64,000 nucleotides of DNA from positions 18,425,292 through 18,489,291 of the forward strand of contig OZ316898.1 in the NCBI GenBank assembly GCA_973895155.1. Direction: 5' to 3'. Under the pieces are notes generated by a model that was not told where the DNA came from, did no database searches, and saw nothing but the letters and a program-made list of their open reading frames with translations. This DNA comes from Marsupella aquatica. Lineage: Eukaryota; Plantae; Marchantiophyta. This document shows, one piece after another, positions 32,682 through 60,430 of this stretch; position 1 is the stretch's first letter; every line of letters starts with the position of its first letter. Made by a program: the position numbers and the translations under genes.

Positions 32682-33015
32682 TGTTGAGCAAAGACAACAG
32701 TCACAACGGCAAGCCCATGATCATCCAATACATAAGTAGTCAACACAAAGAGATACGTGGTTCACCTCAGTTGAGATTACGTCCATGGGAACACAAGAGA
32801 TTTCCTCCACTCTAGGTTTGTCTTTCATATCGAGTCTCCGTAATACAAAATCTCTCTATCTCTCAAGTGACCCCGTAACAATGAGCCTAAGTTCCTCCAA
32901 TCCAAATAAACAGTGTTTGGGTTATAGTGTGCAACATAGTTAGCCTAACTTAGTCCACGATTAAGGTCAGCTATAACTATGGTTACAGCCATAACCCTTG
33001 ACCTAAGAGTAAACG
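32682..33015. mobile_element. Degenerate LTR fragment (same family as 590-925)
   Basis: Starts tgttgagca and contains acgtggttcacc...tacgtcca. Homologous to 590-925 (inverted) and 59891-60290. Confidence 0.55.
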
Positions 33016-34756
33016 CCTAATACGGCACCGAATGTGAAGTGTCATGATCAAGTCTGGACCTCATGATGCCTTTGAATGTCGTTGATTGTCTCACGCTCCC
33101 ATTGGCTTTTGCTAGAGCCATAACATCACTTTCACAACAACAACATTAACCAAAATGGCTACACTTTTGCAACAAGTCACCCAACCAAAATGATGATAGT
33201 TCCATGACCGCACAGATCTAATATGACAACACTTCCTTGACTTGTCTACACTTCTTTGCCTCACCTCATCATCTAAACCCTAAAGACTCTGGCATTGTAG
33301 AACAAACAACAATCATGCAAACAATGGCCATTGGGCTAGTACACTATAAATAATTTTGGGTTCATTGTACCACCTAATTTGAATTGTGACATGTACACAA
33401 TTATTCATTGACCATTGAACTTCTGTCAGCCTCCCCCCTCCCCCACACAAAGCCTTAAGCCAGAGTAATGATTACCCTGAGTGTAATATTCTTTTAGGTT
33501 CTAACTTATATATGAAGGAAAGTCCTGTTTATAGGGCATTGTGTGTGTCATACTACCCCCAAAATGAGAGCTTTGGCTAGTATAGAGGGGCTGTTGTTGT
33601 CCAGAATATTTGGTACTACTACCTTCATACACTTAAATCACACCTTGTCACTTGCCTCTCCAACGGTTAATACGTGCAAACCGCACTTTTCTTCGCTTAA
33701 ACCGTTGGTATCGTATTACGGGGTCGTGGAGGGACGCTATTTGGATTCTTTTCACACCAGGATGAGTATTTTGGTTTCCGCTCCCGGAAATGTAGGTTTT
33801 GATCAAGTCTACCGACTACCCTCACCCCACAGCTTTTGATCAAGTCCTGCCGACTACCCCACTACACCTTCACTCGGAGTCACCCAAAGAGTGCTGTCAC
33901 CACCCCTACTCACAAGGCCGACTCAAACCAAGCAAGTTTCTTCAAATCATAGAACGGGAGAACACAATTCGGAAAGCGAAAAAGGGAGAAGGAACACACA
34001 ACAAAAGCCCATCAAGTCAAATGTACAGATCCATATCTCTTGGGAAAAACGATACACATTGCATGAGTAACCCGGCCTCCTGCCGTCTACTCAACTCCTG
34101 CCTCTCCGGACAATGAGTATGGCTCCCCCTCACTACTCTGAACACGCTTTCAAACTCCTCAGGCTCCACTCTATCCCTCCTTGCTAACTTCACACTGAGT
34201 CCCCCTAACTACTTCGGGGCTATCCCCCTAAATACTGAAAAATCACACCAAAGCACCCCTCACAGGGTCACAACGGTGGCGGCTACCCTAGCGGCGCCGC
34301 TAAAACCTTGCACTAAGAGAAATCCTTAAACTGAAGAGGAGCATGCGGCACACACATGCTGCTAAAACCCTAAACCCAAAACAAGGGGGCCGACGGTGCC
34401 TTCGACGGCGCCCCAACAGTACACGTGAACCCTGAAAGTGAGAGGCACCCCAAAATGGCCGAAACTAGGTGCCCTTCCAAGTGCACACCTGAGCTCACCC
34501 CTGGATAGCTCTTCTTTTCCTGCTTCCGAATCACTAAGTCGCTCCCTCAACGGACTCCAGACGCCTGAGTTATGGCCGTTTCCGTACCGCAAAAACATAA
34601 GTTCTCCAGGCCATAACTTGCTCATCCCGGCTCCGTTTGAGGAGCGCCGCCTCTTGTTGGAATCAGCTCCGCGAGCTCATCCCAACAAGCCCATGAGTGA
34701 CCCCCCACTAAAATGTTGGAAATCTGGAGGCCGTACACCCACGTCCGTACGCCTAT

Positions 34757-36613
34757 CTAATCCTCCTCTTCTTCTTCGCTCTCGGTGCCCGGACTTGTGC
34801 CCCGTGAGTGGTCCTCCTCCTCATCACTCACGGGAGTGAGTGCCACCGTACTTTTCTTCTTCTTCGACGGAGTACTCTTAGTGCTGCTGCTCCCGCGCTT
34901 CCTCAAAGCAGCCAAGGCCTGCCACGCCTTGATGTACCCCTCACCAATTGTGTCCTTCCAGAGGGTAGCCTCTTCTCCGGACCGCAACTCCAACGGTAGA
35001 ACTTGCCCCGTGGCCATGGGAGTCCCGGGGGTGACAGACCTGGGTGGCATCCCCGTACTGACCTGAGCCTCCCGTAACGATTTCCGTACCTCCCGGAGCT
35101 TCTTCTCCAAGCTCTTACTCTTCTCCTGACTCTTCTTGGCTCCATCCAACAAGGGTCCATACTTCCCACTAACCTCCTTCACCACCATCTCGATAGCTTG
35201 GGAGATCACATCCGGGGAAAGTGTGGAGCCAGGTGTGCCGGGACTCTTCCGTTTCCCTAGACTCAGGGCCTCACTTCTCTTCGCTCGTGTCTCAAAGGCT
35301 GCCACCTGACTCCGTAGTGCTCCCACCTGGTTCCTCCACTCCATCACTTCTCCAGAATTTTGCTTCTCTTTGGCCAATGCTTGCCTCAACGCTCCTACTT
35401 CTTCTGCTTCCTTGGCCTTGGTGGACAAAGCTCCCTTCAAGTTGGTGATCTCTACGTGAGCTGCATTGATGTGCCTGACCTTCTCATGAATGGTCTGCTC
35501 CTTGGTCTTGATCACCTCCTTCAGTGACAGGATGCTCTGCTCTAACGTCTCTACTTTGACTGTGGCGTGCTTGAGAGACTCCCTCAATGCGTGGACTAGC
35601 TTGAGTCCCTCGTGGACTCCCTCTCTGAAATCCCGTAGCTCTGCCAAGTAAACATCCGGAATGTTGTATTCCAGAGGCTGTTTCGGATCTCCCACGAGTG
35701 ATTCAAGCCACTCCAATGTGCAATCATCCTCCTGGTTCTCTTCTTCTCTATTATCCTCCCCACCAGCAGACAATGATTCCTCCGTGAGCTTCCCTAAAAC
35801 GGTAGTGGCAATACTCCGGATCTCCGTGGTGAGAGATGATCCCGTGTCTTCATGCCCCGGAGAACCAATCAACCCTTCTGCCCTGGCCAATACAAATGAC
35901 CCCATCAAATGTACAGCCCCACCTGGTTTCACACTCCCGGGCTCAGCGGCCAATAGCTTCTTCAATCCGTAGCACCACCATCCGTACACATGGGCTGGGT
36001 AGTTCTTGATGTCCATAGCTACCACGAAATGCTCCTCATTCAGCACTCCGGATTGCACGTTGCCAAGAACCCGTTGATGCACCTTGGCCAGGAAGCCCTT
36101 ATACTCAACATCCTTGACAGCAGAAAGAGGGATGGCGGTGGTGGAGGTAGGATTGGTCACCCAAGTGGCCACCATTTTCAACGTGAGTTCTCCCCTGATA
36201 TTCCGAGGTGTGAATGAGAATTTCTGATTCTCAAGAAACAATAGCTTAGCCAACTCCACATGGGGCACTACACGTTTGAGACATTCAAAGTAGATTCCCT
36301 CCGTTCGGAACTCCATCCCGGCCTCAATGTCCCAGCTCTTCCCTGAAGGGATGGTAATCTCCACCTTCATGAATTCTGTAAGCCCGGTGGCTTGGAAAAT
36401 GTTCCGACAATCCTCCATCACCTTGGTGGAGGTCTTGGGATAAATTCGACGAAAAATCTTCCTACCCACCGGTGAGGAACCCGCTGCCAATCCCGTGCTC
36501 ATCATAACTTCTCTCTCTTCCCTTTCCCGTGTAATCCGAGTCTCCACGTAGTCACGGTAAGCAGCCTTGTATCTCCGAATGCGTGACGCACTAAACTCTG
36601 GTTGATCTAGCAT
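34757..36613 (-). CDS. LTR-encoded 618-aa accessory protein, 3' LTR copy (coiled coil, NLS-like motifs; possibly remote Athila env-like/ORF1 homologue)
   Basis: Uninterrupted 1,857-bp ATG ORF in the same sense as gag-pol. Heptad region at ~aa 320-445; basic motifs GKRKSP and PSKKKKS; acidic tail. Confidence 0.8.
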   Translation of the reverse strand: MLDQPEFSASRIRRYKAAYRDYVETRITREREEREVMMSTGLAAGSSPVGRKIFRRIYPKTSTKVMEDCRNIFQATGLTEFMKVEITIPSGKSWDIEAGMEFRTEGIYFECLKRVVPHVELAKLLFLENQKFSFTPRNIRGELTLKMVATWVTNPTSTTAIPLSAVKDVEYKGFLAKVHQRVLGNVQSGVLNEEHFVVAMDIKNYPAHVYGWWCYGLKKLLAAEPGSVKPGGAVHLMGSFVLARAEGLIGSPGHEDTGSSLTTEIRSIATTVLGKLTEESLSAGGEDNREEENQEDDCTLEWLESLVGDPKQPLEYNIPDVYLAELRDFREGVHEGLKLVHALRESLKHATVKVETLEQSILSLKEVIKTKEQTIHEKVRHINAAHVEITNLKGALSTKAKEAEEVGALRQALAKEKQNSGEVMEWRNQVGALRSQVAAFETRAKRSEALSLGKRKSPGTPGSTLSPDVISQAIEMVVKEVSGKYGPLLDGAKKSQEKSKSLEKKLREVRKSLREAQVSTGMPPRSVTPGTPMATGQVLPLELRSGEEATLWKDTIGEGYIKAWQALAALRKRGSSSTKSTPSKKKKSTVALTPVSDEEEDHSRGTSPGTESEEEEED

Positions 36614-37035
36614 CCATGCATCCCGAAATCAATTTCTCAATCACCAATCCCGTCACCCGTGGCAATGTCAATTCCCTGGCCCGAAACAGCCCCCGTAGCC
36701 CGATCACTTAAATTCTCTCAATTTCCCGTCACTACTCCGTGCGGCCGCCACTAATGCCTGGAAGAATGACGCCAGCAAGCCCCACTAATCCACCATGAAA
36801 GAGAGAGCTTCAAAAATAATTAGAATCTGGAGAGAGCTTCCGGCAAGAGAGAGAAGAACCCCGTTTTTGCTTTCGGCAATGAGAGGGTCGTGCAAAAGGA
36901 AGAGGGAAAGAAAAAGGAAGGAAAAAAAAATAGAACCGAAAAAACTCCTGGCGCCTTCGCCATGCGCCCCGGCCCATTTCTCGGGCCTTACCCTTGCATC
37001 CTCCTGCGCGCGGCCCTATGCAGGGCGCGCGGCCA

Positions 37036-37407
37036 TTCCTCCCGGCTCGCGGGAGGCCCTTCAACTCCCCCCCGCTCGCGTGATCCTCCCAGCTCGCGGG
37101 AGGCCCTTTAACTCCCCCCCGCTCGCGTGATCCTCCCAGCTCGCGGGAGGCCCTTTAACTCCCCCCCGCTCGCGTGATCCTCCCAGCTCGCGGGAGGCCC
37201 TTTAACTCCCCCCCGCTCGCGTGATCCTCCCAGCTCGCGGGAGGCCCTTTAACTCCCCCCCCCCGCTCGCTTGCGCTCCTTCAGCTCGCGGAGCCTCATT
37301 AATTGCCCGGGCACGCAGCCCTATGGGCTCGCGAGGCAGCCCCTTCAGCTCGCGGAGCCCCATTAATCGCCCGGGCACGCAGCCCTATGGGCTCGCGAGG
37401 CAGCCCC
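37036..37407. repeat. GC-rich 47-bp tandem array (~5 copies) plus 64-bp x2 repeat inside the LTR (again at ~47779-48153)
   Basis: Unit gctcgcgggaggccctttaactcccccccgctcgcgtgatcctccca at 37045/37092/37139/37186/37233; then tcagctcgcggagcc...gaggcagcccc at 37281 and 37345. Confidence 0.95.
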
Positions 37408-37734
37408 TCTTTCTCTCGGACGGCCACTAATGGGACTCGCCCTCCTGAGGAGGGATTTATTTAAAAAAAAACCCCCCCCTCTCCTGACTTTGCAATGGGG
37501 GTCTCAACAATAGCTCTTGAAGCAAAACGGTAAGTCCTATGGGGCTGGTCCTGGCTAGTTTCAAGGTCCCAAAATATTTGCCCACTTAGGTCGCCGCAAA
37601 TCTTAGAACTATTATGAGAGAAAGAATATAAAGTCACCTGGGGCATCATCAACCTATAATGACGGAATTAACTAAAAATTAAAAAATGGCTTATTTACAT
37701 TGACTATTAACAAGGTATCGGCCTTTGCAACCAG

Positions 37735-40700
37735 TTATGTGTGACTTCCCGTGACGGGGTACCCGTCACATAGCTCCTCTCTTAATTGCGAAGCGCCCCC
37801 GCGAGCACCATACTCTTCCTCCGTGTAGTACTTCTTTAGGCGCTCTTGATTGATCCGTGTGTTGAGTAGTTGCCCCTCCAATGTCTTGAGTTGAACCGAG
37901 CCGTTGGAGTAGACGGCATCCACTACGTAGGGTCCCATCCACCGTGTATGCAACTTCCCGGGGAAATGCATGAAGCGGCTATCGTAGAGGAGCACCAAAT
38001 CTCCCTCCTCAATGGACACACGACGGAGACGGGAATCGTAATGTGACTTGCGTTTGCCTTGCTCCTGCTCCGTATGTGTCAAAGCCTCTTCTCGTGTCTC
38101 CGTGAGTTGCTCCAACTGTTGGATCCGTGAAGCGACACTTTCTTCTGCCCCTTCCCTTTCCCGTGTTAGGATTCGAATGGTTGGAACCTCAAATTCCACC
38201 GGCACAAGAGAGTGTTGTCCAAACACAAGGAAATAGGGGCTGTGGCCCGTGGTAGTCTTGTGAGCCAGGTTGTAAGCGTAAGTGGCAGCCAACAACTTCA
38301 AATCCCAATCGGTCTTGTGAGCGGATACCGTTTTGTTGAGGATCTTGCCCATGATCCCGTTGGCTCTCTCAGTGAGCCCGTTGGCTCGAGGGTGGTACGG
38401 AGTGGTCTTCCTATGTGAGATCAAGTAGTTCTCCGTCAAACGTTCAATCGTATGATTGAGGAAGTGAGTACCCCTGTCACTTACCAACTCCAATGGTGGA
38501 CCAAATCGTGTAAAAATCTGCTCATACAAAAAACGTGCCGTGGTGTTGGCATCATCCTTGGCAGTAGCTCGGGCCTCCACCCACTTGGTGGCATAGTCCG
38601 TTGCAAGAATGATGTAGCGCTTCCTCCCTCTTCGTGTGATGGGAGTGAAAGGGCCAATGAAGTCCACCCCCCACTTCTCAAAGGGTGCAAGAGGAAGTAT
38701 GGGCACCAATGGGTGTCGTGAGGAGGGCCCTGGTTTGCCTTGACGCTGGCACGGATCACATCGCTGGATGTACCGGTGTACATCCCGAAAGAGAGTTGGC
38801 CACCAATATCCAGCATCTAGTATTTTCCTTGCGGTGGTCTCCCGTGCAAAGTGGCCACCAGCTTCCTCCTCATGTAATGCTGCCATGACTGTACGTATCT
38901 CCGCTTCCTCCAAACAACGACGAAGTCGGCCATCCATGCCGTACTTGTGAAGTACTCCCTTCACAAGCAAGTAGGGACCTGTCTTACACAAAAACACTGC
39001 TGCTCTCTCCGGGCCCAAACGTGAGGGAACTCTAGCCGTGCGGAGAAATTCCAAAATTTCTCCATACCAAGTAGTGGCCTCTGTATTCACGCTGAACACT
39101 TCCTCATCCGGGAACCGATCATCAATCTCCTGGGAGTCAGATGCTCCCTCAATACGGGAGAAGAAGTCTGCATTGCTATGACTCTTCCCCGATCTTACTC
39201 TCACCTCATAGTTGAACTCTTGTAGCAACAAAACCCAACGTGCAATTCTCCCGGACAGATCTGGCTTGTTGACCATGTATTTCAAGCTGTTGTGATCCGT
39301 GTGGAACACAACCTTGTACCCCAACAAATAATGACGATACTTCTTACAAGCGTAGATGATACCAAGTGCCTCCCTATCGGTGGGTGAGTAGTTTTTCTCT
39401 GCCGGGGCCAACTGCCTACTGGCAAAGTAGATGGGATGGTCTCTTCCATCATCATCTAACTGACTCAAAACGGCACCGATGCAAAATCCTGATACGTCTA
39501 CGTAAACATGGAATTCCTTATTCCAATTGGGCGTAATGAGCACGGGGGCCTCTAGCAATCGTTTCTTCAATTCATCAAAAGCAGCCTGACGGGAAGGAGT
39601 AGGTTCAAACTCACTTCCTTTTTTCAACATGGAAGTGAGTGGCATGGCTACCTTGGCAAAGTCTTTGATGAAGCGTCGGTAGTAGCCAACACACCCCAAG
39701 AACCCTCTCACTTCCTTCACATTCTTGGGAAATGAGACTGCTACCCACACGGCGACCTTCTCACGATCAACTTCAATCCCTCGTGCAGACACTTTGTGGC
39801 CCAATAGGATTCCCTCCTCAATTCCAAAGAAACATTTCTCCGGATGCAGCTTCAGGCAAGTCTCCCGGCACCGCTGAAAAGTCAACCGTAAGTGTTCCGG
39901 ATGCTTGACTCGTTTGCCGTAGACAGCAAAGTCATCAATAAAGATCTCCAAGAACCTGCGTAAAAAGTCATGAAATATATTCATCATGAGCCGTTGGAAC
40001 ATGCCAGGGGCATTGCACAACCCAAAAGGCATTCTCCGGAATGCAAAAATCCCCCACTCTGTTGTGAAAGCCGTCTTGAGTTGGTCCTCCTCCCGTATCC
40101 AGATTTGGTTGTACCCAGAGTAGCCATCCAAGAAGCTGTATATCTCCCAACCTGCTACCATGTCCAACACGATATCCGTGAACGGTAGCGGGTAGTGATC
40201 CTTCTTGGTCGCATCATTCAACTTTCGAAAATCTTGGCACACCCGTATTTTCACCTTCCCGTCTGGCCCCTTTTTCTTGGGCACGATTACGATGGGTGAC
40301 ACCCACTCACTATGCATGACCGGATAAATGAATCCTGCATCCAACAAACGGTCAATCTCCTCCTTCACCATGAGTGAGTATTTGGGGTTGAGGCGGTATT
40401 GGCGTTGCCTCACAGGTCGTGCTCCTGACATCAGGTCAATGCTGTGCTCACCAAACTCAGGTGGCACTCCTTTCAAATCTTGGTGGCTCCACGCAAATAC
40501 GTCTTGGTACTCTTTCAACAATTCCTGAATCGTGCGTTGCTCCGTAGCATCCAACTTACTACCAATGTTGAGTGTCTTGCCCTCACCCACTTCCACCTTT
40601 GTGTACTGCTCCGGCCTGATCACGTCCAACTTGTTGCGTGTCTCCTCATCAAAGGTTTCTTCCAACCGTGCGAGCCTCATCCCTCCATACACCGGTGCAT

Positions 40701-43700
40701 CACTCTCCTCCTGGTCTGGTCGGGATGGAGGTGGATCCTTTGTCACATGGGCCATTATTTCTTCAACGTCAGATTCTTTGTAATGTGACAATAGCTCCTC
40801 TCTAAAGTCATCATCCAGGATGTCATTCAAAAACTGCTCTCTTTGCTCATCATCAAACATGATCGTGTGGGCTTGCATTTCCACCTCCTCGGGGTGATCC
40901 TCTGCCTCCCTATCATGAATCTCTAGAGGTTCAGCCTCCACAATTTTGCTTCGCTCGTCTTCCATCTCTTCTAGAACAGCGTGCACTTGGCTAACTGATT
41001 CCTCTACTGCATGCTCTTGAGTAGCAACTCCGGGGCCAAAAACATCTTCCTCCGTGAGGTGAGAAATCAGTTTCACCATGTATACTTCATCCTCGTCTTC
41101 ATCTGAGGTGACCTCTGAATCATATTCCTCCTCCATAGTCGTAGTCTCCCCGTGAGGTGACTCCGCTGACCATGGAATAGTGATAGTGGGGATACCAAAC
41201 CGAAACTGCCGTTTGCCCCAATCACTTGTGACCTTGGCCACATACAACCATGGCCTGCCAATTAAAATGGGAAAACCGTACGGCCGAACGGGTCGCATCA
41301 CCAAATAGTTGAGGGGGAAAGATTTTCCCCCAATCATTGTTGGAATCTTGGTGAGACACCCCAACGGCACCACCCGTGCACCATCAGCCAACCTCATGGC
41401 ACGTGCCGGTGGTTCTAACTCTGTATACCCCAACCGGTTTGCCGTCTCCTCAGTCATGATGTTGACTCCCGAGCCCCCGTCCACCGGTACAAACCGTATT
41501 GCACATCCATTGATGTCCACCGTGAGTTCTGGGGCACCCAAATCCTCCGTGACCCAGTTGACTTGTATGGGGTCAGCCCCAACTTTGGGTAACCTTCTTC
41601 TACGTCTCCTCCTCATGAGAATCTCCTTGACTTGGCGACGGTATAGGGAGCTATCCCGTAATAGTTGACCAATTGTGGCACTGACTGGGCAATCCAGAAT
41701 GTCTTGAGCAATGTTGTACGCGGTTGCAGGAGGTATGGGTGGGATGACCTCTTCTCCCGGTTTCCAACGAACAACCCTCTCCTCCGCTTTCTTTCTGGCC
41801 TTTGCCTCCTCCATGTCTTTGTCAATGGCCGCTTGCATGGCTTGTGCTTCTAGCTCCTCCAACTGCTTACGTACCTCTTCTCCCACCTTCGGATAGAACA
41901 ACTTGGGGTTGTCCCGATCAAAGTCACTATCCTCCATGGGTGGCACCTCCGGTTCGTGTGAGGTACCCGATGTGGAAGCTTGATGCACCTCCTTGTACTT
42001 CTGCTTGAGCTCGGACTTGCCCTTCTTTTTGCCGGATCGAGTGGAGACTCGGTAACAAGAGTAATGCCTTCTCTCCTCGTCGCTGTCTTCCTCCGGTAGA
42101 TTCTCAGCATGAGTCCACTCATGACTTGGGGGTGAGGGGTTAGCAACTTCAACTTCCGTAGATGTTGCAACAACAACCACCGGTATCTCAACAACTGGAG
42201 ATACTACAACGACTAGCGGTACCACCTCCTCCGTTATGGTGGTCATCCTTTGCTTGGGAATGTTCACTACGGTTTCTTCTCTTCTAGTGATTAGAGGGGT
42301 GTCGACTGCTTCCGTGGTGAGAAAGTTGACGCTAGCTTCTTTCAGAGGAGGTGGCGGCCCCTTCTTCTCTTGTGCCCCAATCGGTTGAGCCTTGAACGCC
42401 TCCAAGGTTGGGCAGTGTGGTGCAAGATGACCCTCCCCCTTGCATAGTTGACACAGCCGGGCAAAATCTCCATTGCCTTGACGGGTGGGCTCTGGGCACA
42501 CATTAGCGTAGTGGCCCGCCACTCTACAATTGTAACAAATAGGGATCTTCCTCACTCCAGGGTACGGTGGTCGATTCCCTGGGTTAGCGTTGGGATAGTT
42601 GGAGTATGCGGGTGCTCCGGCGTTTGTTGAAACTCCATGAATGCTCCGTGGTCCCGGGTTGAGAGGTTGTACACTATACACGTTGGCCTCTGGTGGCTCC
42701 TCCATGAAGTACTCTATTGGCCCTTCCGCTGCATATGAAGGATTTGAGTAGCTTGCCCCCTCAACATCCTCCTCCCGTACTTGGAAAACCTTGGCTGGTT
42801 CTCCCGCTGGGCACTCCTTCGGGGCATGACCAAACTTCATGCACTTGGTGCACCACACATTGGCTCTCTCCACCGGAACTTTTCTCCTCTCAGGTTTGAG
42901 TCCGGCAAAATGTACTTTCAACGCTTTCATTTGCTCCGTCAGCTCATCATATCTGGCCTCTTGCTCCTTCAGGCGTCTTGCCGTAGACAATGGTGTAACG
43001 GCCACCGTGGGTAGTATCACTTCACGGTGAGAGGACTTCTTGACTTTCTTTGACAACTTCTTCTTCTTCCTCCTTCGTCTTTCAGCTTCTGACTCCGTAG
43101 TGTCTGACTCTGTAGTACTCTCAGAATCCTCAGATTCATCACTACTATCTGAATCAGATCCACTCGACTCCTCACTGGAGGAACTGTCAACCGGCTTCAG
43201 CTTCTTTCTTCGGCAACGCTTGCTTGTGGCATCAGCTGCGGTGTATGACTCCGCTGCTGCAATAGCTTCAGCCAATGTGGTTGGCTTGGCTTGACGTACA
43301 AAGAACCCCATCTTGCTTGGTAGGGCAGCCACAAACCAGGCTTGACGCATAGCATCATCGGTACGGGCTTGGATCCGACGTACCAGCTTTTGGAACCTTT
43401 GCAAAAACCTCCGTAATGACTCCTTCTTCTTCATCCTGAGTTGGCCCACCTTTAATAGTGAGGTGGCCTCCACTCCTATGGATCTGAACTCCTTCAAGAA
43501 GGCTTGCTTGAACAGAGCCCAATCAGCTTTCACGTTGGCCAACAACGAAATGAACCATGGACCTGCCTCCCCTCTCATCATTCCAGGAATGATAGTGAGC
43601 TTATGTGCAGACTCCCCATTAGCTTCGGCAATCCCTTCAAACTCCTCAATCCATTCGTCTGGATCATCCTTTGGTCTCCCCTTGAAGGGTACGTACTGAA

Positions 43701-44133
43701 CACGGGTACGTTGTGCAGCTGCCATCGGTGCAGCCGGTGCCTGTATCAACACAGGTGGTAATGGCGCTTGTTGGGCCACCGGTAACAGCACCGATGATAG
43801 GTGTGAGATGATTTGTGGCAATGCAGTGAGCTCTGGGATCAGATTTTGTAACTCAGACTGCACCAACACAAAGGGCTCTCCTTCTTCTCGCTCGTGATCT
43901 ATGTCTGGCTCTTCGTCTGGGCATATGGCCTCATTACGTTGAGCCTCTTCCTGTTGCACACCAACTTGTTCTTCCAGCACCAGTGGCAACCTCCTCTCTT
44001 CTGCAAGCCGTAAGCGTTCTTCGGCAGCAACTCGTCGTCTGGTCCCAATCCAAGAGGGCCCCCCTTCTAGCTCTGATCTTGGGGTACGTGTGTGTTGGGG
44101 ACTTCCTCTACCTCCCCTTCTCCCTCTCGGCAT
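37735..44133 (-). CDS. Gag-Pol polyprotein, 2132 aa
   Basis: Retrotransposon gag core, three CCHC knuckles, protease VDGGSG, RT (CQDFRKLN, DGYSGYNQI, MPFGLCNAP, FIDDF), RNase H (HTDHNSL), integrase HHCC + D,D35E (GVDFIGP, SDRGTHF, ERAN) and GPY. No chromodomain. Confidence 0.97.
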   Translation of the reverse strand: MPRGRRGGRGSPQHTRTPRSELEGGPSWIGTRRRVAAEERLRLAEERRLPLVLEEQVGVQQEEAQRNEAICPDEEPDIDHEREEGEPFVLVQSELQNLIPELTALPQIISHLSSVLLPVAQQAPLPPVLIQAPAAPMAAAQRTRVQYVPFKGRPKDDPDEWIEEFEGIAEANGESAHKLTIIPGMMRGEAGPWFISLLANVKADWALFKQAFLKEFRSIGVEATSLLKVGQLRMKKKESLRRFLQRFQKLVRRIQARTDDAMRQAWFVAALPSKMGFFVRQAKPTTLAEAIAAAESYTAADATSKRCRRKKLKPVDSSSSEESSGSDSDSSDESEDSESTTESDTTESEAERRRRKKKKLSKKVKKSSHREVILPTVAVTPLSTARRLKEQEARYDELTEQMKALKVHFAGLKPERRKVPVERANVWCTKCMKFGHAPKECPAGEPAKVFQVREEDVEGASYSNPSYAAEGPIEYFMEEPPEANVYSVQPLNPGPRSIHGVSTNAGAPAYSNYPNANPGNRPPYPGVRKIPICYNCRVAGHYANVCPEPTRQGNGDFARLCQLCKGEGHLAPHCPTLEAFKAQPIGAQEKKGPPPPLKEASVNFLTTEAVDTPLITRREETVVNIPKQRMTTITEEVVPLVVVVSPVVEIPVVVVATSTEVEVANPSPPSHEWTHAENLPEEDSDEERRHYSCYRVSTRSGKKKGKSELKQKYKEVHQASTSGTSHEPEVPPMEDSDFDRDNPKLFYPKVGEEVRKQLEELEAQAMQAAIDKDMEEAKARKKAEERVVRWKPGEEVIPPIPPATAYNIAQDILDCPVSATIGQLLRDSSLYRRQVKEILMRRRRRRRLPKVGADPIQVNWVTEDLGAPELTVDINGCAIRFVPVDGGSGVNIMTEETANRLGYTELEPPARAMRLADGARVVPLGCLTKIPTMIGGKSFPLNYLVMRPVRPYGFPILIGRPWLYVAKVTSDWGKRQFRFGIPTITIPWSAESPHGETTTMEEEYDSEVTSDEDEDEVYMVKLISHLTEEDVFGPGVATQEHAVEESVSQVHAVLEEMEDERSKIVEAEPLEIHDREAEDHPEEVEMQAHTIMFDDEQREQFLNDILDDDFREELLSHYKESDVEEIMAHVTKDPPPSRPDQEESDAPVYGGMRLARLEETFDEETRNKLDVIRPEQYTKVEVGEGKTLNIGSKLDATEQRTIQELLKEYQDVFAWSHQDLKGVPPEFGEHSIDLMSGARPVRQRQYRLNPKYSLMVKEEIDRLLDAGFIYPVMHSEWVSPIVIVPKKKGPDGKVKIRVCQDFRKLNDATKKDHYPLPFTDIVLDMVAGWEIYSFLDGYSGYNQIWIREEDQLKTAFTTEWGIFAFRRMPFGLCNAPGMFQRLMMNIFHDFLRRFLEIFIDDFAVYGKRVKHPEHLRLTFQRCRETCLKLHPEKCFFGIEEGILLGHKVSARGIEVDREKVAVWVAVSFPKNVKEVRGFLGCVGYYRRFIKDFAKVAMPLTSMLKKGSEFEPTPSRQAAFDELKKRLLEAPVLITPNWNKEFHVYVDVSGFCIGAVLSQLDDDGRDHPIYFASRQLAPAEKNYSPTDREALGIIYACKKYRHYLLGYKVVFHTDHNSLKYMVNKPDLSGRIARWVLLLQEFNYEVRVRSGKSHSNADFFSRIEGASDSQEIDDRFPDEEVFSVNTEATTWYGEILEFLRTARVPSRLGPERAAVFLCKTGPYLLVKGVLHKYGMDGRLRRCLEEAEIRTVMAALHEEEAGGHFARETTARKILDAGYWWPTLFRDVHRYIQRCDPCQRQGKPGPSSRHPLVPILPLAPFEKWGVDFIGPFTPITRRGRKRYIILATDYATKWVEARATAKDDANTTARFLYEQIFTRFGPPLELVSDRGTHFLNHTIERLTENYLISHRKTTPYHPRANGLTERANGIMGKILNKTVSAHKTDWDLKLLAATYAYNLAHKTTTGHSPYFLVFGQHSLVPVEFEVPTIRILTREREGAEESVASRIQQLEQLTETREEALTHTEQEQGKRKSHYDSRLRRVSIEEGDLVLLYDSRFMHFPGKLHTRWMGPYVVDAVYSNGSVQLKTLEGQLLNTRINQERLKKYYTEEEYGARGGASQLREELCDGYPVTGSHT
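37771..37783 (-). other. Polypurine tract AAGAGAGGAGCTA
   Basis: Abuts the TG of the 3' LTR on the - strand and lies within the pol coding sequence (REEL). Confidence 0.75.
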
Positions 44134-44350
44134 CCCATTGAGACCTGCATTCCAAACTTACACCAATGTCTCAGAAAGCAATATTTGTAAACATCAACCG
44201 TCGCACGATGCGTTGTGGTTGACGTACAATAACAAAGTAACCAACAAACTTCTCACGTATCAACCGTCGCAAGTTGCGTTGTGGTTGATAGGTTTGAACT
44301 CCCAATAGACGTAGCTCCCCTCCTTCGTGTCGTCAAACAAGAAGAAGGAT

Positions 44351-44368
44351 TCCCCGGCAGCGGCGCCA
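44351..44368 (-). other. Primer-binding site TGGCGCCGCTGCCGGGGA (tRNA-Asp)
   Basis: 17/18 match to the canonical Athila PBS TGGCGCCGTTGCCGGGGA, which is complementary to the 3' end of plant tRNA-Asp(GTC). Confidence 0.85.
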
Positions 44369-44388
44369 AAAACAAAAGACCACACTTA

Positions 44389-47300
44389 TGTCACTTGCCT
44401 CTCCAACGGTTAATACGTGCAAACCGCACTTTTCTTCGCTTAAACCGTTGGTATCGTATTACGGGGTCGTGGAGGGACGCTATTTGGATTCTTTTCACAC
44501 CAGGATGAGTATTTTGGTTTCCGCTCCCGGAAATGTAGGTTTTGATCAAGTCTACCGACTACCCTCACTCCACAGCTTTTGATCAAGTCCTGCCGACTAC
44601 CCCACTACACCTTCACTCGGAGTCACCCAAAGAGTGCTGTCACCACCCCTACTCACAAGGCCGACTCAAACCAAGCAAGTTTCTTCAAATCATAGAACGG
44701 GAGAACACAATTCGGAAAGCGAAAAAGGGAGAAGGAACACACAACAAAAGCCCATCAAGTCAAATGTACAGATCCATATCTCTTGGGAAAAACGATACAC
44801 ATTGCATGAGTAACCCGGCCTCCTGCCGTCTACTCAACTCCTGCCTCTCCGGACAATGAGTATGGCTCCCCCTCACTACTCTGAACACGCTTTCAAACTC
44901 CTCAGGCTCCACTCTATCCCTCCTTGCTAACTTCACACTGAGTCCCCCTAACTACTTCGGGGCTATCCCCCTAAATACTGAAAAATCACACCAAAGCACC
45001 CCTCACAGGGTCACAACGGTGGCGGCTACCCTAGCGGCGCCGCTAAAACCTTGCACTAAGAGAAATCCTTAAACTGAAGAGGAGCATGCGGCACACACAT
45101 GCTGCTAAAACCCTAAACCCAAAACAAGGGGGCCGACGGTGCCTTCGACGGCGCCCCAACAGTACACGTGAACCCTGAAAGTGAGAGGCACCCCAAAATG
45201 GCCGAAACTAGGTGCCCTTCCAAGTGCACACCTGAGCTCACCCCTGGATAGCTCTTCTTTTCCTGCTTCCGAATCACTAAGTCGCTCCCTCAACGGACTT
45301 CAGACGCCTGAGTTATGGCCGTTTCCGTACCGCAAAAACATAAGTTCTCCAGGCCATAACTTGCTCATCCTGGCTCCGTTTGAGGAGCGCCGCCTCTTGT
45401 TGGAATCAGCTCCGCGAGCTCATCCCAACAAGCCCATGAGTGACCCCCCACTAAAATGTTGGAAATCTGGAGGCCGTACACCCACGTCCGTACGCCTATC
45501 TAATCCTCCTCTTCTTCTTCGCTCTCGGTGCCCGGACTTGTGCCCCGTGAGTGGTCCTCCTCCTCATCACTCACGGGAGTGAGTGCCACCGTACTTTTCT
45601 TCTTCTTCGACGGAGTACTCTTAGTGCTGCTGCTCCCGCGCTTCCTCAAAGCAGCCAAGGCCTGCCACGCCTTGATGTACCCCTCACCAATTGTGTCCTT
45701 CCAGAGGGTAGCCTCTTCTCCGGACCGCAACTCCAACGGTAGAACTTGCCCCGTGGCCATGGGAGTCCCGGGGGTGACAGACCTGGGTGGCATCCCCGTA
45801 CTGACCTGAGCCTCCCGTAACGATTTCCGTACCTCCCGGAGCTTCTTCTCCAAGCTCTTACTCTTCTCCTGACTCTTCTTGGCTCCATCCAACAAGGGTC
45901 CATACTTCCCACTAACCTCCTTCACCACCATCTCGATAGCTTGGGAGATCACATCCGGGGAAAGTGTGGAGCCAGGTGTGCCGGGACTCTTCCGTTTCCC
46001 TAGACTCAGGGCCTCACTTCTCTTCGCTCGTGTCTCAAAGGCTGCCACCTGACTCCGTAGTGCTCCCACCTGGTTCCTCCACTCCATCACTTCTCCAGAA
46101 TTTTGCTTCTCTTTGGCCAATGCTTGCCTCAACGCTCCTACTTCTTCTGCTTCCTTGGCCTTGGTGGACAAAGCTCCCTTCAAGTTGGTGATCTCTACGT
46201 GAGCTGCATTGATGTGCCTGACCTTCTCATGAATGGTCTGCTCCTTGGTCTTGATCACCTCCTTCAGTGACAGGATGCTCTGCTCTAACGTCTCTACTTT
46301 GACTGTGGCGTGCTTGAGAGACTCCCTCAATGCGTGGACTAGCTTGAGTCCCTCGTGGACTCCCTCTCTGAAATCCCGTAGCTCTGCCAAGTAAACATCC
46401 GGAATGTTGTATTCCAGAGGCTGTTTCGGATCTCCCACGAGTGATTCAAGCCACTCCAATGTGCAATCATCCTCCTGGTTCTCTTCTTCTCTATTATCCT
46501 CCCCACCAGCAGACAATGATTCCTCCGTGAGCTTCCCTAAAACGGTAGTGGCAATACTCCGGATCTCCGTGGTGAGAGATGATCCCGTGTCTTCATGCCC
46601 CGGAGAACCAATCAACCCTTCTGCCCTGGCCAATACAAATGACCCCATCAAATGTACAGCCCCACCTGGTTTCACACTCCCGGGCTCAGCGGCCAATAGC
46701 TTCTTCAATCCGTAGCACCACCATCCGTACACATGGGCTGGGTAGTTCTTGATGTCCATAGCTACCACGAAATGCTCCTCATTCAGCACTCCGGATTGCA
46801 CGTTGCCAAGAACCCGTTGATGCACCTTGGCCAGGAAGCCCTTATACTCAACATCCTTGACAGCAGAAAGAGGGATGGCGGTGGTGGAGGTAGGATTGGT
46901 CACCCAAGTGGCCACCATTTTCAACGTGAGTTCTCCCCTGATATTCCGAGGTGTGAATGAGAATTTCTGATTCTCAAGAAACAATAGCTTAGCCAACTCC
47001 ACATGGGGCACTACACGTTTGAGACATTCAAAGTAGATTCCCTCCGTTCGGAACTCCATCCCGGCCTCAATGTCCCAGCTCTTCCCTGAAGGGATGGTAA
47101 TCTCCACCTTCATGAATTCTGTAAGCCCGGTGGCTTGGAAAATGTTCCGACAATCCTCCATCACCTTGGTGGAGGTCTTGGGATAAATTCGACGAAAAAT
47201 CTTCCTACCCACCGGTGAGGAACCCGCTGCCAATCCCGTGCTCATCATAACTTCTCTCTCTTCCCTTTCCCGTGTAATCCGAGTCTCCACGTAGTCACGG

Positions 47301-48516
47301 TAAGCAGCCTTGTATCTCCGAATGCGTGACGCACTAAACTCTGGTTGATCTAGCATCCATGCATCCCGAAATCAATTTCTCAATCACCAATCCCGTCACC
47401 CGTGGCAATGTCAATTCCCTGGCCCGAAACAGCCCCCGTAGCCCGATCACTTAAATTCTCTCAATTTCCCGTCACTACTCCGTGCGGCCGCCACTAATGC
47501 CTGGAAGAATGACGCCAGCAAGCCCCACTAATCCACCATGAAAGAGAGAGCTTCAAAAATAATTAGAATCTGGAGAGAGCTTCCGGCAAGAGAGAGAAGA
47601 ACCCCGTTTTTGCTTTCGGCAATGAGAGGGTCGTGCAAAAGGAAGAGGGAAAGAAAAAGGAAGGAAAAAAAAATAGAACCGAAAAAACTCCTGGCGCCTT
47701 CGCCATGCGCCCCGGCCCATTTCTCGGGCCTTACCCTTGCGTCCTCCTGCGCGCGGCCCTATGCAGGGCGCGCGGCCATTCCTCCCGGCTCGCGGGAGGC
47801 CCTTCAACTCCCCCCCGCTCGCGTGATCCTCCCAGCTCGCGGGAGGCCCTTTAACTCCCCCCCGCTCGCGTGATCCTCCCAGCTCGCGGGAGGCCCTTTA
47901 ACTCCCCCCCGCTCGCGTGATCCTCCCAGCTCGCGGGAGGCCCTTTAACTCCCCCCCGCTCGCGTGATCCTCCCAGCTCGCGGGAGGCCCTTTAACTCCC
48001 CCCCCCCCCCGCTCGCTTGCGCTCCTTCAGCTCGCGGAGCCTCATTAATTGCCCGGGCACGCAGCCCTATGGGCTCGCGAGGCAGCCCCTTCAGCTCGCG
48101 GAGCCCCATTAATCGCCCGGGCACGCAGCCCTATGGGCTCGCGAGGCAGCCCCTCTTTCTCTCGGACGGCCACTAATGGGACTCGCCCTCCTGAGGAGGG
48201 ATTTATTTAAAAAAAAACCCCCCCCTCTCCTGACTTTGCAATGGGGGTCTCAACAATAGCTCTTGAAGCAAAACGGTAAGTCCTATGGGGCTGGTCCTGG
48301 CTAGTTTCAAGGTCCCAAAATATTTGCCCACTTAGGTCGCCGCAAATCTTAGAACTATTATGAGAGAAAGAATATAAAGTCACCTGGGGCATCATCAACC
48401 TATAATGACGGAATTAACTAAAAATTAAAAAATGGCTTATTTACATTGACTATTAACAAGGTATCGGCCTTTGCAACCAGTTATGTGTGACTTCCCGTGA
48501 CGGGGTACCCGTCACA
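44389..48516 (-). repeat. 5' LTR (4,128 bp)
   Basis: Copy of 33646-37770 at offset 10,743 (10,746 after a 3-nt poly-C expansion). Confidence 0.95.
45500..47356 (-). CDS. LTR-encoded 618-aa accessory protein, 5' LTR copy
   Basis: Translation identical to 34757-36613. Confidence 0.8.
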   Translation of the reverse strand: MLDQPEFSASRIRRYKAAYRDYVETRITREREEREVMMSTGLAAGSSPVGRKIFRRIYPKTSTKVMEDCRNIFQATGLTEFMKVEITIPSGKSWDIEAGMEFRTEGIYFECLKRVVPHVELAKLLFLENQKFSFTPRNIRGELTLKMVATWVTNPTSTTAIPLSAVKDVEYKGFLAKVHQRVLGNVQSGVLNEEHFVVAMDIKNYPAHVYGWWCYGLKKLLAAEPGSVKPGGAVHLMGSFVLARAEGLIGSPGHEDTGSSLTTEIRSIATTVLGKLTEESLSAGGEDNREEENQEDDCTLEWLESLVGDPKQPLEYNIPDVYLAELRDFREGVHEGLKLVHALRESLKHATVKVETLEQSILSLKEVIKTKEQTIHEKVRHINAAHVEITNLKGALSTKAKEAEEVGALRQALAKEKQNSGEVMEWRNQVGALRSQVAAFETRAKRSEALSLGKRKSPGTPGSTLSPDVISQAIEMVVKEVSGKYGPLLDGAKKSQEKSKSLEKKLREVRKSLREAQVSTGMPPRSVTPGTPMATGQVLPLELRSGEEATLWKDTIGEGYIKAWQALAALRKRGSSSTKSTPSKKKKSTVALTPVSDEEEDHSRGTSPGTESEEEEED

Positions 48517-49453
48517 CACCTGCCCCTATAAAGGGCTACGGGTAACCCGTAGCTCTCATTCTAAAGAGTATTCTAAAAGGTGCTGATTGCAAAACCTTTT
48601 TTTAGCAAGTACTCCACAAAAGGTGCTAGAGTTCCACCTTTTATGGTGAATAGTGAGACATGGAATGAAATTTTTATAGTGGCAGGTGTGGTTTAAAGGC
48701 CTAAGAGATTTTCATTTTTACTAGTTTTATTAAGAGAAAAAGTGAATTTTCCTAATGAGAGGTTTTAAATCTTCGCTGTGCAATTTTCTCTTTAGAATGC
48801 CCTGAAAATTACAAAGACACATTAACTCACTGAGGGCATTAAGTATTAACTATTCCTAGGTCTAGTTAGCATACTTTATTATTTTGTAGAATGATCCTAA
48901 CTCTGAACCAGTTATTTGCCACATCCAAAGCCAGGATGGACCCATGGGGAACATCTTCTCGCAACGCACAGATATTCACCTAATCATCATCATGGCTATA
49001 TTTTCACTATTTGGCTAATAGACCACTACATGACTAAGTACCTGTCCTCGGCTGCCTTGCTCCAGTCTTTAATCTGCCTTTGAAATATCCAGTACAAAAC
49101 TTTGCAATAGAGTTTGGGATAGACAGCTTGTTTGGGTCTCATTGCTGCTTTTTCTACCACCTCCAGAGGAAGTTTAATGGGTGACTGATCAATGAATAAT
49201 TACGAAGGCCCCTCCGTTGCTGCAACCTTTCAGCAAGGAAGGATTGACGACTGACTATGTTGCCAGACTTTGAGTATAAGAGGCCTTCTGGCCTCAAATA
49301 GTCCCATTGTTCTTCCACTCCATCGACAATCTCGATTAACCAAGATTGCAGGCAGGTCAATATCACTAGATTTGAGCTTTGGGGTAGAAAGTTGATATTC
49401 CTTACAATTGGAGTGAGCTGCTGAATTGGACGGCTTACAGGAAGACAAGTTTT

Positions 49454-50686
49454 GTGCTTACCCACATCAACGAGGATCCTCACGCTGTCACTAAGGCCAG
49501 AGATTTCAAAGATTTCATGCACACTCGTCTGGGGTCACTAGATCCTCTGTGTAGGACAATGGACGCACTTTCACTCAGTCCTTTCTCCAAGAAGATGAGC
49601 AGAGGCCGACGGAGTGATGAGATCCAAGTCTGTTCCCCCGTTCTAAAAAGCTCTGATCTCATCACAGAGCGGTATGTGGAGGATGGACAAATCCTTCTGA
49701 GTCTATCAAAATCTTCACCAGTGGAGCTCATTTCAATTGGGGACGGCATGATGGAATTGGGTGAAGATTCTGCATCCCCTGAAGAAACTGATTTTATAGG
49801 TAGTTTTCACGTTGTGAATTTGGATTCGAACGTTTCAGAAAACCAGCTTGAAGACCAGACACGGATGGAAACTGTTGGTCAAGAGAATTGTCCCAGCTCC
49901 CCAATTGTCGGAAAGCAAGAAAGGCCTAATGAGATTATACAGGAATATATTCAGGGCGGACAAATTCCTCCAGTGGCAATTACAAGTCTGTCAAAATCCG
50001 CACCAGTGAGTCTTAATGTTGCAGTGGATGGCGTCACAGTGGACTTGTGTGACGATTCTAACTCACCTAATAAGATAGAATCGATGAGTTCTGTTCGAAT
50101 TGATGTTTCAAGTTTGGATCCTGTGGCAGATCAAACAGGTGTGGAAACTGTGAAACCTTGCATAGAGAATGGGGCCTGTCAAACTCATTACGGTATCAGA
50201 TGTAACTGGTGTGGCAGGAATCCTATTATTGGACCGCTATTCAGGTCCTGCAATATATTAGGCTACAACTTGTGTCTCCAGTGTTTCCAAGCCACCGGGG
50301 CTAAGAGAGGGGAATACACTATGATCGATCTATTTTATTTTGAGAATCCAATTACATCCCTGGAGAGCCTAATGCCGACTTCCAGTCCTGAACGAGGTAA
50401 GTCAGATTCAGCTAAGACCAGAGGAGAAACTGTGGATAAAGAAACACATGAAACACGGCTTCCCATAGAGGCCCGCATAGAGGACTTCGCAGCAAAGTTG
50501 GGAGTGCTGGCCCTTGAGGATCTCGGGGAGGATCCATGTGAGGCCCACAAACCGAAGGCAGAGCTGTTCGAGAGTATCAATTTGAACTTGCACAAACCTT
50601 CAGAGGATCTGTGCGCAGTGGAAGGGTGGGATGCAATGATTGACGAGCTACAGGATTTTGGTTACTCCGACTCTGAGATTGAGTAA
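49454..50686 (+). CDS. NBR1-like derived protein (ZZ zinc finger + truncated UBA), possibly a pseudogene
   Basis: HYGIRCNWCGRNPIIGPLFRSCNILGYNLCLQCF resembles the plant NBR1 ZZ domain. EDLCAVEGWDAMIDELQDFGY resembles NBR1 DDLCGVSEWDPILEELQEMGF. The frame is open from 49388; the true start is uncertain. Confidence 0.65.
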   Translation: MLTHINEDPHAVTKARDFKDFMHTRLGSLDPLCRTMDALSLSPFSKKMSRGRRSDEIQVCSPVLKSSDLITERYVEDGQILLSLSKSSPVELISIGDGMMELGEDSASPEETDFIGSFHVVNLDSNVSENQLEDQTRMETVGQENCPSSPIVGKQERPNEIIQEYIQGGQIPPVAITSLSKSAPVSLNVAVDGVTVDLCDDSNSPNKIESMSSVRIDVSSLDPVADQTGVETVKPCIENGACQTHYGIRCNWCGRNPIIGPLFRSCNILGYNLCLQCFQATGAKRGEYTMIDLFYFENPITSLESLMPTSSPERGKSDSAKTRGETVDKETHETRLPIEARIEDFAAKLGVLALEDLGEDPCEAHKPKAELFESINLNLHKPSEDLCAVEGWDAMIDELQDFGYSDSEIE

Positions 50687-59890: not shown

Positions 59891-60430
59891 TGTTAACAAA
59901 ATAATATTCACAATGACAAGCCCATGAACATTCCACAAAGACATAGTCAACACACACAGTATGTTGTGGTTCACTGTAGCTAGCTGAGGTTACATACACA
60001 GGAACATGTAAGAGCATTATTGCACTCTAGGTTCATCAGTCATATCAAGTCTCCACAATACAAGTCCTCCCTATTTCTCAATTGGCTATGTAACAATGAG
60101 TCATAATTCCTCGTCACAAGTGCCTATTTCTCAATTGGCTATGTAACAATGAGCCATAATTCTTCGTCACAAGTAACAACTTGCTTGCACATATAGTGGG
60201 CGACATGACTAACCTAACGAAGTCTACCACTAGTTTAGACTAACTATAATAGCAATCATAACTATAGATCTAAAAATAATTGTCTAATAGTGTACCAAGT
60301 AGCAACCTGCTTGCACATATAGTGTGCAACATGACTAACCTAACCAAATCTACCACTAGTTTAGACTAACTATAATAACAATCATAAGTCACTATAGATC
60401 TAAAAATAATTTTTCAAATAGTGTAGCAAC
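59891..60430. mobile_element. Degenerate LTR fragment with internal tandem duplications (same family as 590-925)
   Basis: Starts tgttaaca; shares blocks with 32682-33015; two internal duplicated segments. Confidence 0.55.

Follow-up and report, generated by a model that had tools for sequence, protein, structure and literature searches.

Extra open reading frames (ORFs) of plant retrotransposons are placed internally by reviews and REXdb, before gag or after pol (PMC6317226; PMC7264820), and the plant mobile domain (PMD), Transposase_28 and Athila ORF-1 are the commonest domains encoded by them in Ogre, Retand and Athila (PMC6317226). In Retand and Athila a tandem array and the extra ORF are found between pol and the 3' long terminal repeat (LTR) (PMC11963269; PMC7264820; PMC11728184), with tandem arrays following pol in half of the Retand elements (PMC11963269), and bdelloid elements capture diverse ORF3s after pol (PMC5408684). 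Here we describe a Ty3/gypsy element of the liverwort Marsupella aquatica which carries a 618-codon ORF within each of its two LTRs and is located in a stretch of 64,000 nucleotides (contig OZ316898.1 of assembly GCA_973895155.1, positions 18,425,292 to 18,489,291 of the forward strand), hereafter the window. Literature searches, with most subscription papers and the main survey of extra ORFs (Steinbauerova et al. 2011) outside of their scope, revealed no plant retrotransposon that contains an entire gene within its LTR.

Such a layout is best known from sag of mouse mammary tumour virus (MMTV), a complete accessory gene in both LTRs that makes the LTR exceptionally long (PMC3026287). The MMTV LTR, though, measures about 1.3 kb as compared to 4.1 kb here, Sag is a membrane-presented immune protein whereas the ORF product is predicted to be soluble, with no homology suggested, and Sag is expressed from spliced RNAs starting in the 5' LTR or env, whereas 1.16 kb of LTR DNA of its own precedes the present ORF (PMC3026287). 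The rice elements Retrosat2, RIRE3 and RIRE8 share LTRs of more than 3 kb (more than 3.2 kb in Retrosat2) and one extra sense ORF, but their ORF0 is located upstream of gag-pol and treated apart from the LTR, and these elements are grass-specific and of a different lineage (PMC3485330). As the LTRs of non-chromoviruses can reach about 5 kb (PMC6317226), LTR size is not new in itself.

On balance, and with slightly better than even confidence, we read the locus as a young Athila-like element with an accessory ORF in the LTR that is likely family-wide and is predicted to encode a nuclear coiled-coil regulator of the PMD/Athila-ORF1 type, which would keep the element transcribed.

An ORF in both LTRs of a very young element

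The element is complete, is encoded on the minus strand and spans 14,871 bp (33646..48516), 55.5% of which is contributed by the two LTRs (Table 1). In self-comparison the LTRs constitute the one long direct repeat of the window, with CACCT outside of each, and the direct LTRs with TG...CA ends, the target-site duplication (TSD), the primer binding site (PBS), the polypurine tract (PPT) and the Gag-PR-RT-RH-INT domain order recognized by Pfam identify a Ty3/gypsy LTR retrotransposon. An earlier note, made from the sequence alone, had proposed these boundaries, ends, repeat lengths and the LTR share of about 55%, and all its coordinates hold. It had equally claimed an intact 618-aa ORF in gag-pol sense in each LTR, and DNA-identical copies of a 618-codon ATG ORF are indeed present at both places.

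The ORF has the properties of a gene. When the LTR was shuffled 1,000 times, the longest ATG ORF obtained had 306 codons (mean 122), and the codon usage of the ORF tracks that of gag-pol (correlation of relative synonymous codon usage r 0.73, versus 0.47 and 0.24 in the shifted frames). A full HMMER scan of 1.84 billion representatives recovered six homologues of residues 1–330 with E <= 0.001. Five are unnamed pieces of 70–177 aa with 43–59% identity, some with unrelated tails, and the sixth is a full-length protein of 596 aa from the liverwort Calypogeia fissa, CAM6083533.1, with 28% identity over 189 aa (E 1e-19) and a second aligned block running into the coiled coil, thus with the same domain-plus-coiled-coil layout. 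As domain and coiled coil are kept at 28–59% identity, long-standing selection at the protein level is likely, and a neutral and usually disrupted ORF, as considered in the earlier note, is disfavoured by the same homologues. CAM6083533.1 and the ORF may be distant paralogues, of one genome or of different ones. Among the 12 listed of 80 indels in contigs of public sequencing runs, one falls into the ORF, and it is 3 nt long and in frame. Word-seeded protein searches with the ORF and with a seven-sequence alignment gave no match, but are insensitive, as they missed CAM6083533.1 too. The sole metagenome match to the ORF was rejected as a false positive in bacterial DNA, and viral contigs contained no relative of the ORF, of the pol alignment or of the related protein P0006 discussed below.

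The element is very young. Four substitutions and a 3-nt indel within a run of G, all outside of the ORF, distinguish the two LTRs, which amounts to a divergence of 0.097% and an insertion age of approximately 40–160 thousand years at assumed rates of 1.3e-8 to 3e-9. One of the four substitutions (44569/33826) coincides with a common polymorphism of the family in runs X1 and X2 and may be derived from recombination, conversion or assembly and not from mutation after insertion, so that the age estimate may be too high.

The boundaries are independently confirmed by the target site. The insertion interrupts one arm of a flanking inverted repeat. In comparison to the far arm of this repeat, 11 of 12 nt of the left flank and 15 of 16 nt of the right flank are identical, but only 7 of 12 nt of the LTR end, which supports both the duplicated 5-mer and the exact element ends. 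The inverted repeat itself (48517–48695, 33634–33645), with arms of about 23 nt enclosing about 140 nt, resembles a miniature inverted-repeat transposable element, and two small hairpins adjoin the insertion site, one of which is like the palindrome at the LTR start. A nested or tandem short-LTR structure, as an internal duplication of the LTR ends, was not found in the self-comparison of the window.

Table 1. Features of the Marsupella aquatica element, in positions of the window.
Feature	Position	Strand	Remarks
5' LTR	44389..48516	-	4,128 bp, TGTGAC...GTGACA
3' LTR	33646..37770	-	4,125 bp, TGTGAC...GTGACA
Target-site duplication, left	33641..33645	+	CACCT
Target-site duplication, right	48517..48521	+	CACCT
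Accessory ORF, 5' LTR copy	45500..47356	-	618 aa
Accessory ORF, 3' LTR copy	34757..36613	-	DNA-identical to 5' LTR copy
gag-pol, one ORF	37735..44133	-	2,132 aa; Gag, zinc knuckles, protease, RT, RNase H, integrase
Polypurine-tract-like sequence	37771..37783	-	abuts 3' LTR, within last pol codons
Primer binding site	44351..44368	-	one base off tRNA-Asp/Asn PBS of Athila
Spacer between LTR end and PBS	44369..44388	-	20 nt
GC-/CpG-rich tandem array, 5' LTR	47780..48154	-	47-bp and 64-bp units, upstream of ORF
GC-/CpG-rich tandem array, 3' LTR	37037..37408	-	same array
T-rich stretch	44717..44816	-	44% T, two TGTA; about 700 nt past ORF stop; candidate 3'-end signal region
Purine tract ending as the present PPT	45249..45264	-	250 nt after ORF stop; weak candidate relic PPT

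Probable placement of the ORF in the LTR throughout the family

Eight of 12 listed public runs contain the stretch, six with at least half of its words, and none of them is recorded as RNA. Contigs of four runs were aligned over 37420–47600 only, with the tandem array and the outer edge of the 5' LTR outside this range, and depth figures refer to contigs with zero to one differences among 31 listed of 5,440 pieces; the comparison omits the listed contigs with more differences and one internal contig of run X3 with one difference. In run X2, three ORF contigs have a depth of 6,189–6,330 versus 2,729–2,934 for three internal contigs (ratio 2.24), and the LTR start, at 5,631, has 2.0 times the internal depth. 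In run X1, the LTR start (1,524) and tail (1,572) compare with five internal contigs at 687–724 (ratio 2.19), and a zero-difference contig terminates precisely at 37770, the edge of the LTR, which is the pattern to be expected from many diverging flanks. Run X7 was too sparse for a depth ratio.

A depth of about twice that of the internal region, in runs of two studies, is the ratio expected for an ORF present twice per element, and the ORF is thus likely located in the LTR throughout the young family. The LTR-borne accessory gene postulated by the earlier note is supported by the intact ORF in both LTRs together with this LTR-level depth. The same note had considered that the element might be a one-off mispriming product with siblings having LTRs of about 1 kb, which does not apply to the young family with its near-identical ORF contigs at LTR-level depth and one contig that ends at the LTR edge. 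An LTR to internal ratio of 2.0–2.2 leaves room for only a few young solo LTRs. The family likely consists of tens of near-identical copies, as suggested by a diverged 15.6-kb contig with a depth of 16 in run X1. When all contigs of run X1 from 82% identity are summed, the LTR tail reaches 3.4 and the ORF 3.2 times the internal depth.

Type of protein encoded by the ORF

The protein is composed of an N-terminal domain (residues about 1–280), an acidic linker, a coiled coil (320–451 and 467–520) and an acidic tail, with basic motifs at 454, 571 and 584. AlphaFold2 models of low confidence (pLDDT 43–44) show long helices at 320–451 and 467–520; with these models Foldseek gave no match at E 0.001, and VIA gave short-helix matches only, with Z at most 4.7. 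No transmembrane segment was detected, the highest 19-residue Kyte-Doolittle mean being 1.1, and an env-like protein was ruled out on these grounds.

More likely than not, the ORF protein belongs to the PMD/Athila-ORF1/Transposase_32 group. It resembles the accessory proteins already known from plant retrotransposons and does not look like the product of an unprecedented gene. For the ORF domain, the Athila family PF03078 is among the top three Atlas leads with a score of 0.76, below 0.9. For CAM6083533.1, clusters of the PMD family PF10536 (0.85, 0.80 and 0.80) and Transposase_28 (0.77) are proposed, all below 0.9, with seven of the 10 best Atlas family matches in one family or clan, and a structure lead points to a Transposase_32 model, aligned over 196 residues with TM values of 0.67 (target) and 0.28 (query), short of the bar of the tool. 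The leads of both proteins thus converge on the families which dominate the extra ORFs of Ogre, Retand and Athila. In Pfam, the ORF and its homologues gave sub-threshold coiled-coil matches only, and PF10536, PF03078, PF20167 and PF04195 had no match to any of them at E up to 1 or 10.

With the extra-ORF proteins of Ogre (PF10536), Retand (Transposase_28, PF04195) and Athila (PF03078, PF20167), the protein shares the order of N-terminal domain and coiled coil, the basic motifs and the proximity of tandem arrays, and it is towards these families that the Atlas leads point; it differs by the lack of a Pfam match at threshold, and the described ORFs are internal and, in Retand, antisense. The VANC proteins of the Mutator-like VANDAL elements offer another comparison, as VANC binds short motifs amplified as tandem repeats (PMC5735166). 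In published models, both Athila-domain proteins and VANC form pentamers through coiled coils, and VANC is reported to be structurally similar to MAIN, a PMD protein (PMC13547354). An accessory protein with a coiled coil next to short motifs multiplied as tandem repeats is common to VANC and the present ORF (PMC5735166; PMC13547354). VANDAL, on the other hand, is a DNA transposon of dicots with demonstrated binding and demethylation, whereas here the motif array is the only counterpart, with no sequence match between the proteins.

Lineage of the element

The Athila lineage of REXdb, a non-chromovirus OTA group, is characterized by a 5-bp TSD, an Asp/Asn-type PBS, a single GAG-PROT-RT-RH-INT frame and one extra ORF (PMC6317226), all of which are found here, and the element falls into the size range of Athila of 7.3–22.8 kb. 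As in Athila, neither an aRH domain (Pfam, intact polyprotein, E up to 1) nor a chromodomain (Pfam, polyprotein) was matched, by which the aRH-containing Tat lineages (TatI–III, Ogre, Retand) and the chromoviruses, respectively, are ruled out. The PBS matches the published Asp/Asn core of Athila at 12 of 13 nt (bioRxiv 10.64898/2026.03.20.713144), as judged from the PBS alone. Phygy and Selgy have a 4-bp TSD, a tRNA-Trp or tRNA-Ala PBS, a size of less than 10 kb and no extra ORF (PMC6317226 supplement 5); the 5-bp TSD, single frame and size of the element fit Athila and exclude both, as do its PBS and extra ORF.

Common traits of Athila are nevertheless absent. The extra ORF is located inside both LTRs and not between pol and the 3' LTR, with no pol-to-LTR spacer, the LTR measures 4.1 kb and not the typical 1–2 kb, and the spacer between LTR and PBS is 20 nt versus 3–6 bp in Brassicaceae Athila. 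In the tree of the reverse transcriptase (RT), the element and 24 unnamed rows make up a clade of 25 (support 99) that is distinct from a group of 45 angiosperm rows (support 99), with the joining fork open. This quick tree was calculated without REXdb references from 105 of 121 proteins, 16 of short coverage having been dropped, among them the Riccia sorocarpa polyprotein, which reaches 60% over RT-RH. Together with CAM6083533.1, this polyprotein points to a liverwort host. As liverwort elements without aRH have also been described as basal Tat Z2 (PMC13468544), we call the element Athila-like rather than Athila proper. The absence of aRH is shared with these Tat Z1/Z2 elements of liverworts, which are known here by description only.

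The earlier note had located the PBS near 44389; a PBS is present, but begins 20 nt inside of the LTR end and does not adjoin it. With such a spacer, integrase would need far more trimming than usual, or priming differs; variants of the family occur within the spacer (44369–44388). A distant relative, L002, was identified in a search of prokaryote genomes on a contig of 5.7 kb that covers the PBS, gag and a portion of pol. The 22 bases at its PBS are the same, but only 3 nt separate them from the LTR end, which indicates that the 20-nt spacer is peculiar to the present family. No homologue of the ORF was found in L002, with only 480 nt of LTR in the contig. L002 (1–5724) is a plant-type gypsy fragment in a cyanobacterial metagenome-assembled genome, likely a contamination, and has, in the interval from PBS to gag, two overlapping unrelated frames (170 and 179 codons). 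From metagenomes, no locus of the close pol relatives (78–81% RT identity) was obtained.

Proposed origin and function, and alternative explanations

The junction of pol and the 3' LTR suggests how the ORF may have come into the LTR. The earlier note was right that a PPT abuts 37770, and as a detail not contained therein this purine tract (37783..37771) is located inside the last pol codons, because gag-pol reads with its last 36 nt into the 3' LTR without a spacer. In the relative P0006, pol stops approximately 25 residues earlier, right after the integrase tail. A region between pol and the 3' LTR of the Athila/Tat type, with array and extra ORF, would have been absorbed into U3 when plus-strand priming moved to a purine tract inside the pol tail, upon which ordinary reverse transcription would put the absorbed region into both LTRs. 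The empty pol-LTR interval, the overlap of pol with the LTR and the earlier stop of P0006 make such a priming shift the simplest history, which would be a plant case of a 3' accessory region absorbed into U3, parallel to MMTV sag. A purine tract 250 nt after the ORF stop, a weak candidate for a relic PPT, ends as the present PPT; a motif of this kind occurs in 41 of 5,000 shuffles of the LTR tail. An exact 12-nt copy of the PPT is located in pol between protease and RT (40792–40803) and a similar tract directly after the PBS (44312–44326), with no copy in 98 kb of flank strands; these two tracts are possible extra plus-strand priming sites, or due to chance.

Upstream of the ORF, the tandem array contains 13 sense copies of CGCGAG, a motif with no copies in the internal region and two in the flanks, and has a CpG observed to expected ratio of 0.91. 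Transcription of the ORF would start in the 1.16 kb upstream and end near the T-rich stretch, judged from its composition a candidate plant 3'-end signal region, so that any LTR would form a complete transcription unit by itself, whether alone or as one of a pair. The least certain step is the action of the protein, which would oligomerize via the coiled coil and, comparable to VANC on the VANDAL tandem repeats, target the CpG-rich array of its own LTR so as to trans-activate the element or counteract its silencing. By this analogy, a nuclear regulator acting on its own array is a tentative proposal, which we hold at well short of even confidence. That the LTR as a whole constitutes a self-contained anti-silencing cassette, with promoter, motif array, a PMD-like protein recognizing the array and a 3' end, we consider unlikely; if true, each insertion would double the gene, each solo LTR would stay a trans-activator of the family, and the element would represent the first VANC-like system in a plant retrotransposon and provide a function for Athila-ORF1/PMD proteins.

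Recombination between LTRs to a solo LTR is the usual route by which the host deletes retrotransposons. An intact LTR gene throughout a family would alter the meaning of both LTR and solo LTR, as recombination would drop gag-pol and leave the accessory gene behind. Annotation pipelines would overlook such a gene or call it a host gene. As a single intact unit of 4 kb contains both the gene and its candidate target array, the anti-silencing idea is directly testable.

Several results weigh against the reading of a family-wide LTR gene for a PMD/Athila-ORF1-type regulator. With respect to placement, the depths are contig means and give no copy number, the types of the runs are not on record, and run X1 may be the source of the window itself. 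Run X3 is low and noisy, with ORF contigs at 69 and 35 versus four internal contigs at 19–47 (ratio 1.6), and in run X2, summed from 82% identity, the LTR tail reaches 2.9 times the internal depth, the ORF only 1.6 times; older relatives may share the LTR tail without the present ORF, or the non-coding tail may fragment into more overlapping contigs. With respect to the protein, no Pfam family passed the cut-off for the ORF or for the N-terminal domains of the homologues, every Atlas lead is below 0.9 or under the bar of the tool, and a profile comparison with three Transposase_32 segments, made with shallow profiles, gave a probability of 1%, no better than with unrelated or shuffled controls. 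All six homologues are known by their protein sequence alone, and the five unnamed ones are short and some evidently broken. With respect to origin and transcription, the relic-PPT motif was noticed post hoc and is present twice more in the element, and no TATA-like box was found in the LTR tail, so that a separate downstream start of the genomic RNA becomes less likely.

Among the alternatives, a selected LTR gene with the protein serving particles, RNA or integration as a scaffold, tether or transport factor, and not chromatin at the array, is possible, at a weight clearly below even. The long coiled coil is compatible with such a role, no DNA-binding family was matched in Pfam, and Athila-type ORFs have no assigned function (PMC7264820; bioRxiv 10.64898/2026.03.20.713144). 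On the other hand, the basic motifs, the leads directed to PMD and the private motif array beside the gene speak against it, and the lack of a membrane segment makes the protein not env-like.

A second alternative, that the gene and its family-wide layout are as described but the ORF is located in a very long R (or U5), with a single start upstream and early polyadenylation or splicing deciding between ORF and gag-pol mRNA, we regard as rather unlikely. A donor-like GTAAG site at 47734 upstream of the ORF is one of only three in LTR and leader, acceptor-like sites are found at 47570 before the ORF and at 44145 (TGCAG before GT, 12 nt before the gag ATG), and the CpG-rich and pyrimidine-rich upstream part is more promoter-like than the tail. 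These splice sites are, however, consensus matches only, out-of-frame ATGs follow both candidate acceptors, and the arrangement requires a strong-stop cDNA of more than 3 kb and read-through of the first 3'-end signal.

Quite unlikely is the ORF as a passenger, recently captured into the LTR of one young burst and intact through youth alone. The LTR divergence indeed leaves too little time for decay, the summed depth of run X2 is lower over the ORF than over the tail, and several homologues are fragments. Yet the homologues at 28–59% identity retain domain and coiled coil, the codon usage of the ORF follows gag-pol, and a useless 1.9 kb carried twice is costly; the position in the LTR could still be recent with the gene being old. 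A one-off event by mispriming, recombination or misassembly in a family with short LTRs and an internal ORF is very improbable and largely refuted: in runs of two studies, the ORF and both LTR ends have approximately twice the depth of the internal region, one contig is broken off precisely at 37770, and the far arm of the inverted repeat gives the TSD independent support. In its favour are the single copy readable in full, the overlap of pol with the LTR and the unusual length of the PBS spacer.

Neighbourhood of the insertion

At a distance of 1 kb from the 5' LTR and head to head with the element, an ORF of 389 aa with a ZZ zinc finger (49517–50686, plus strand) is found, which may be NBR1-like. 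Exons encoding PHD and SRA domains (56256–58037, minus strand), located some 8 kb away from the element, presumably belong to a methylation reader gene of the ORTHRUS/VIM type. A dispersed repeat of approximately 330 bp, probably an old non-autonomous element, is present in three copies with 72–76% identity (589–925, 32682–33013 and 59908–60112).

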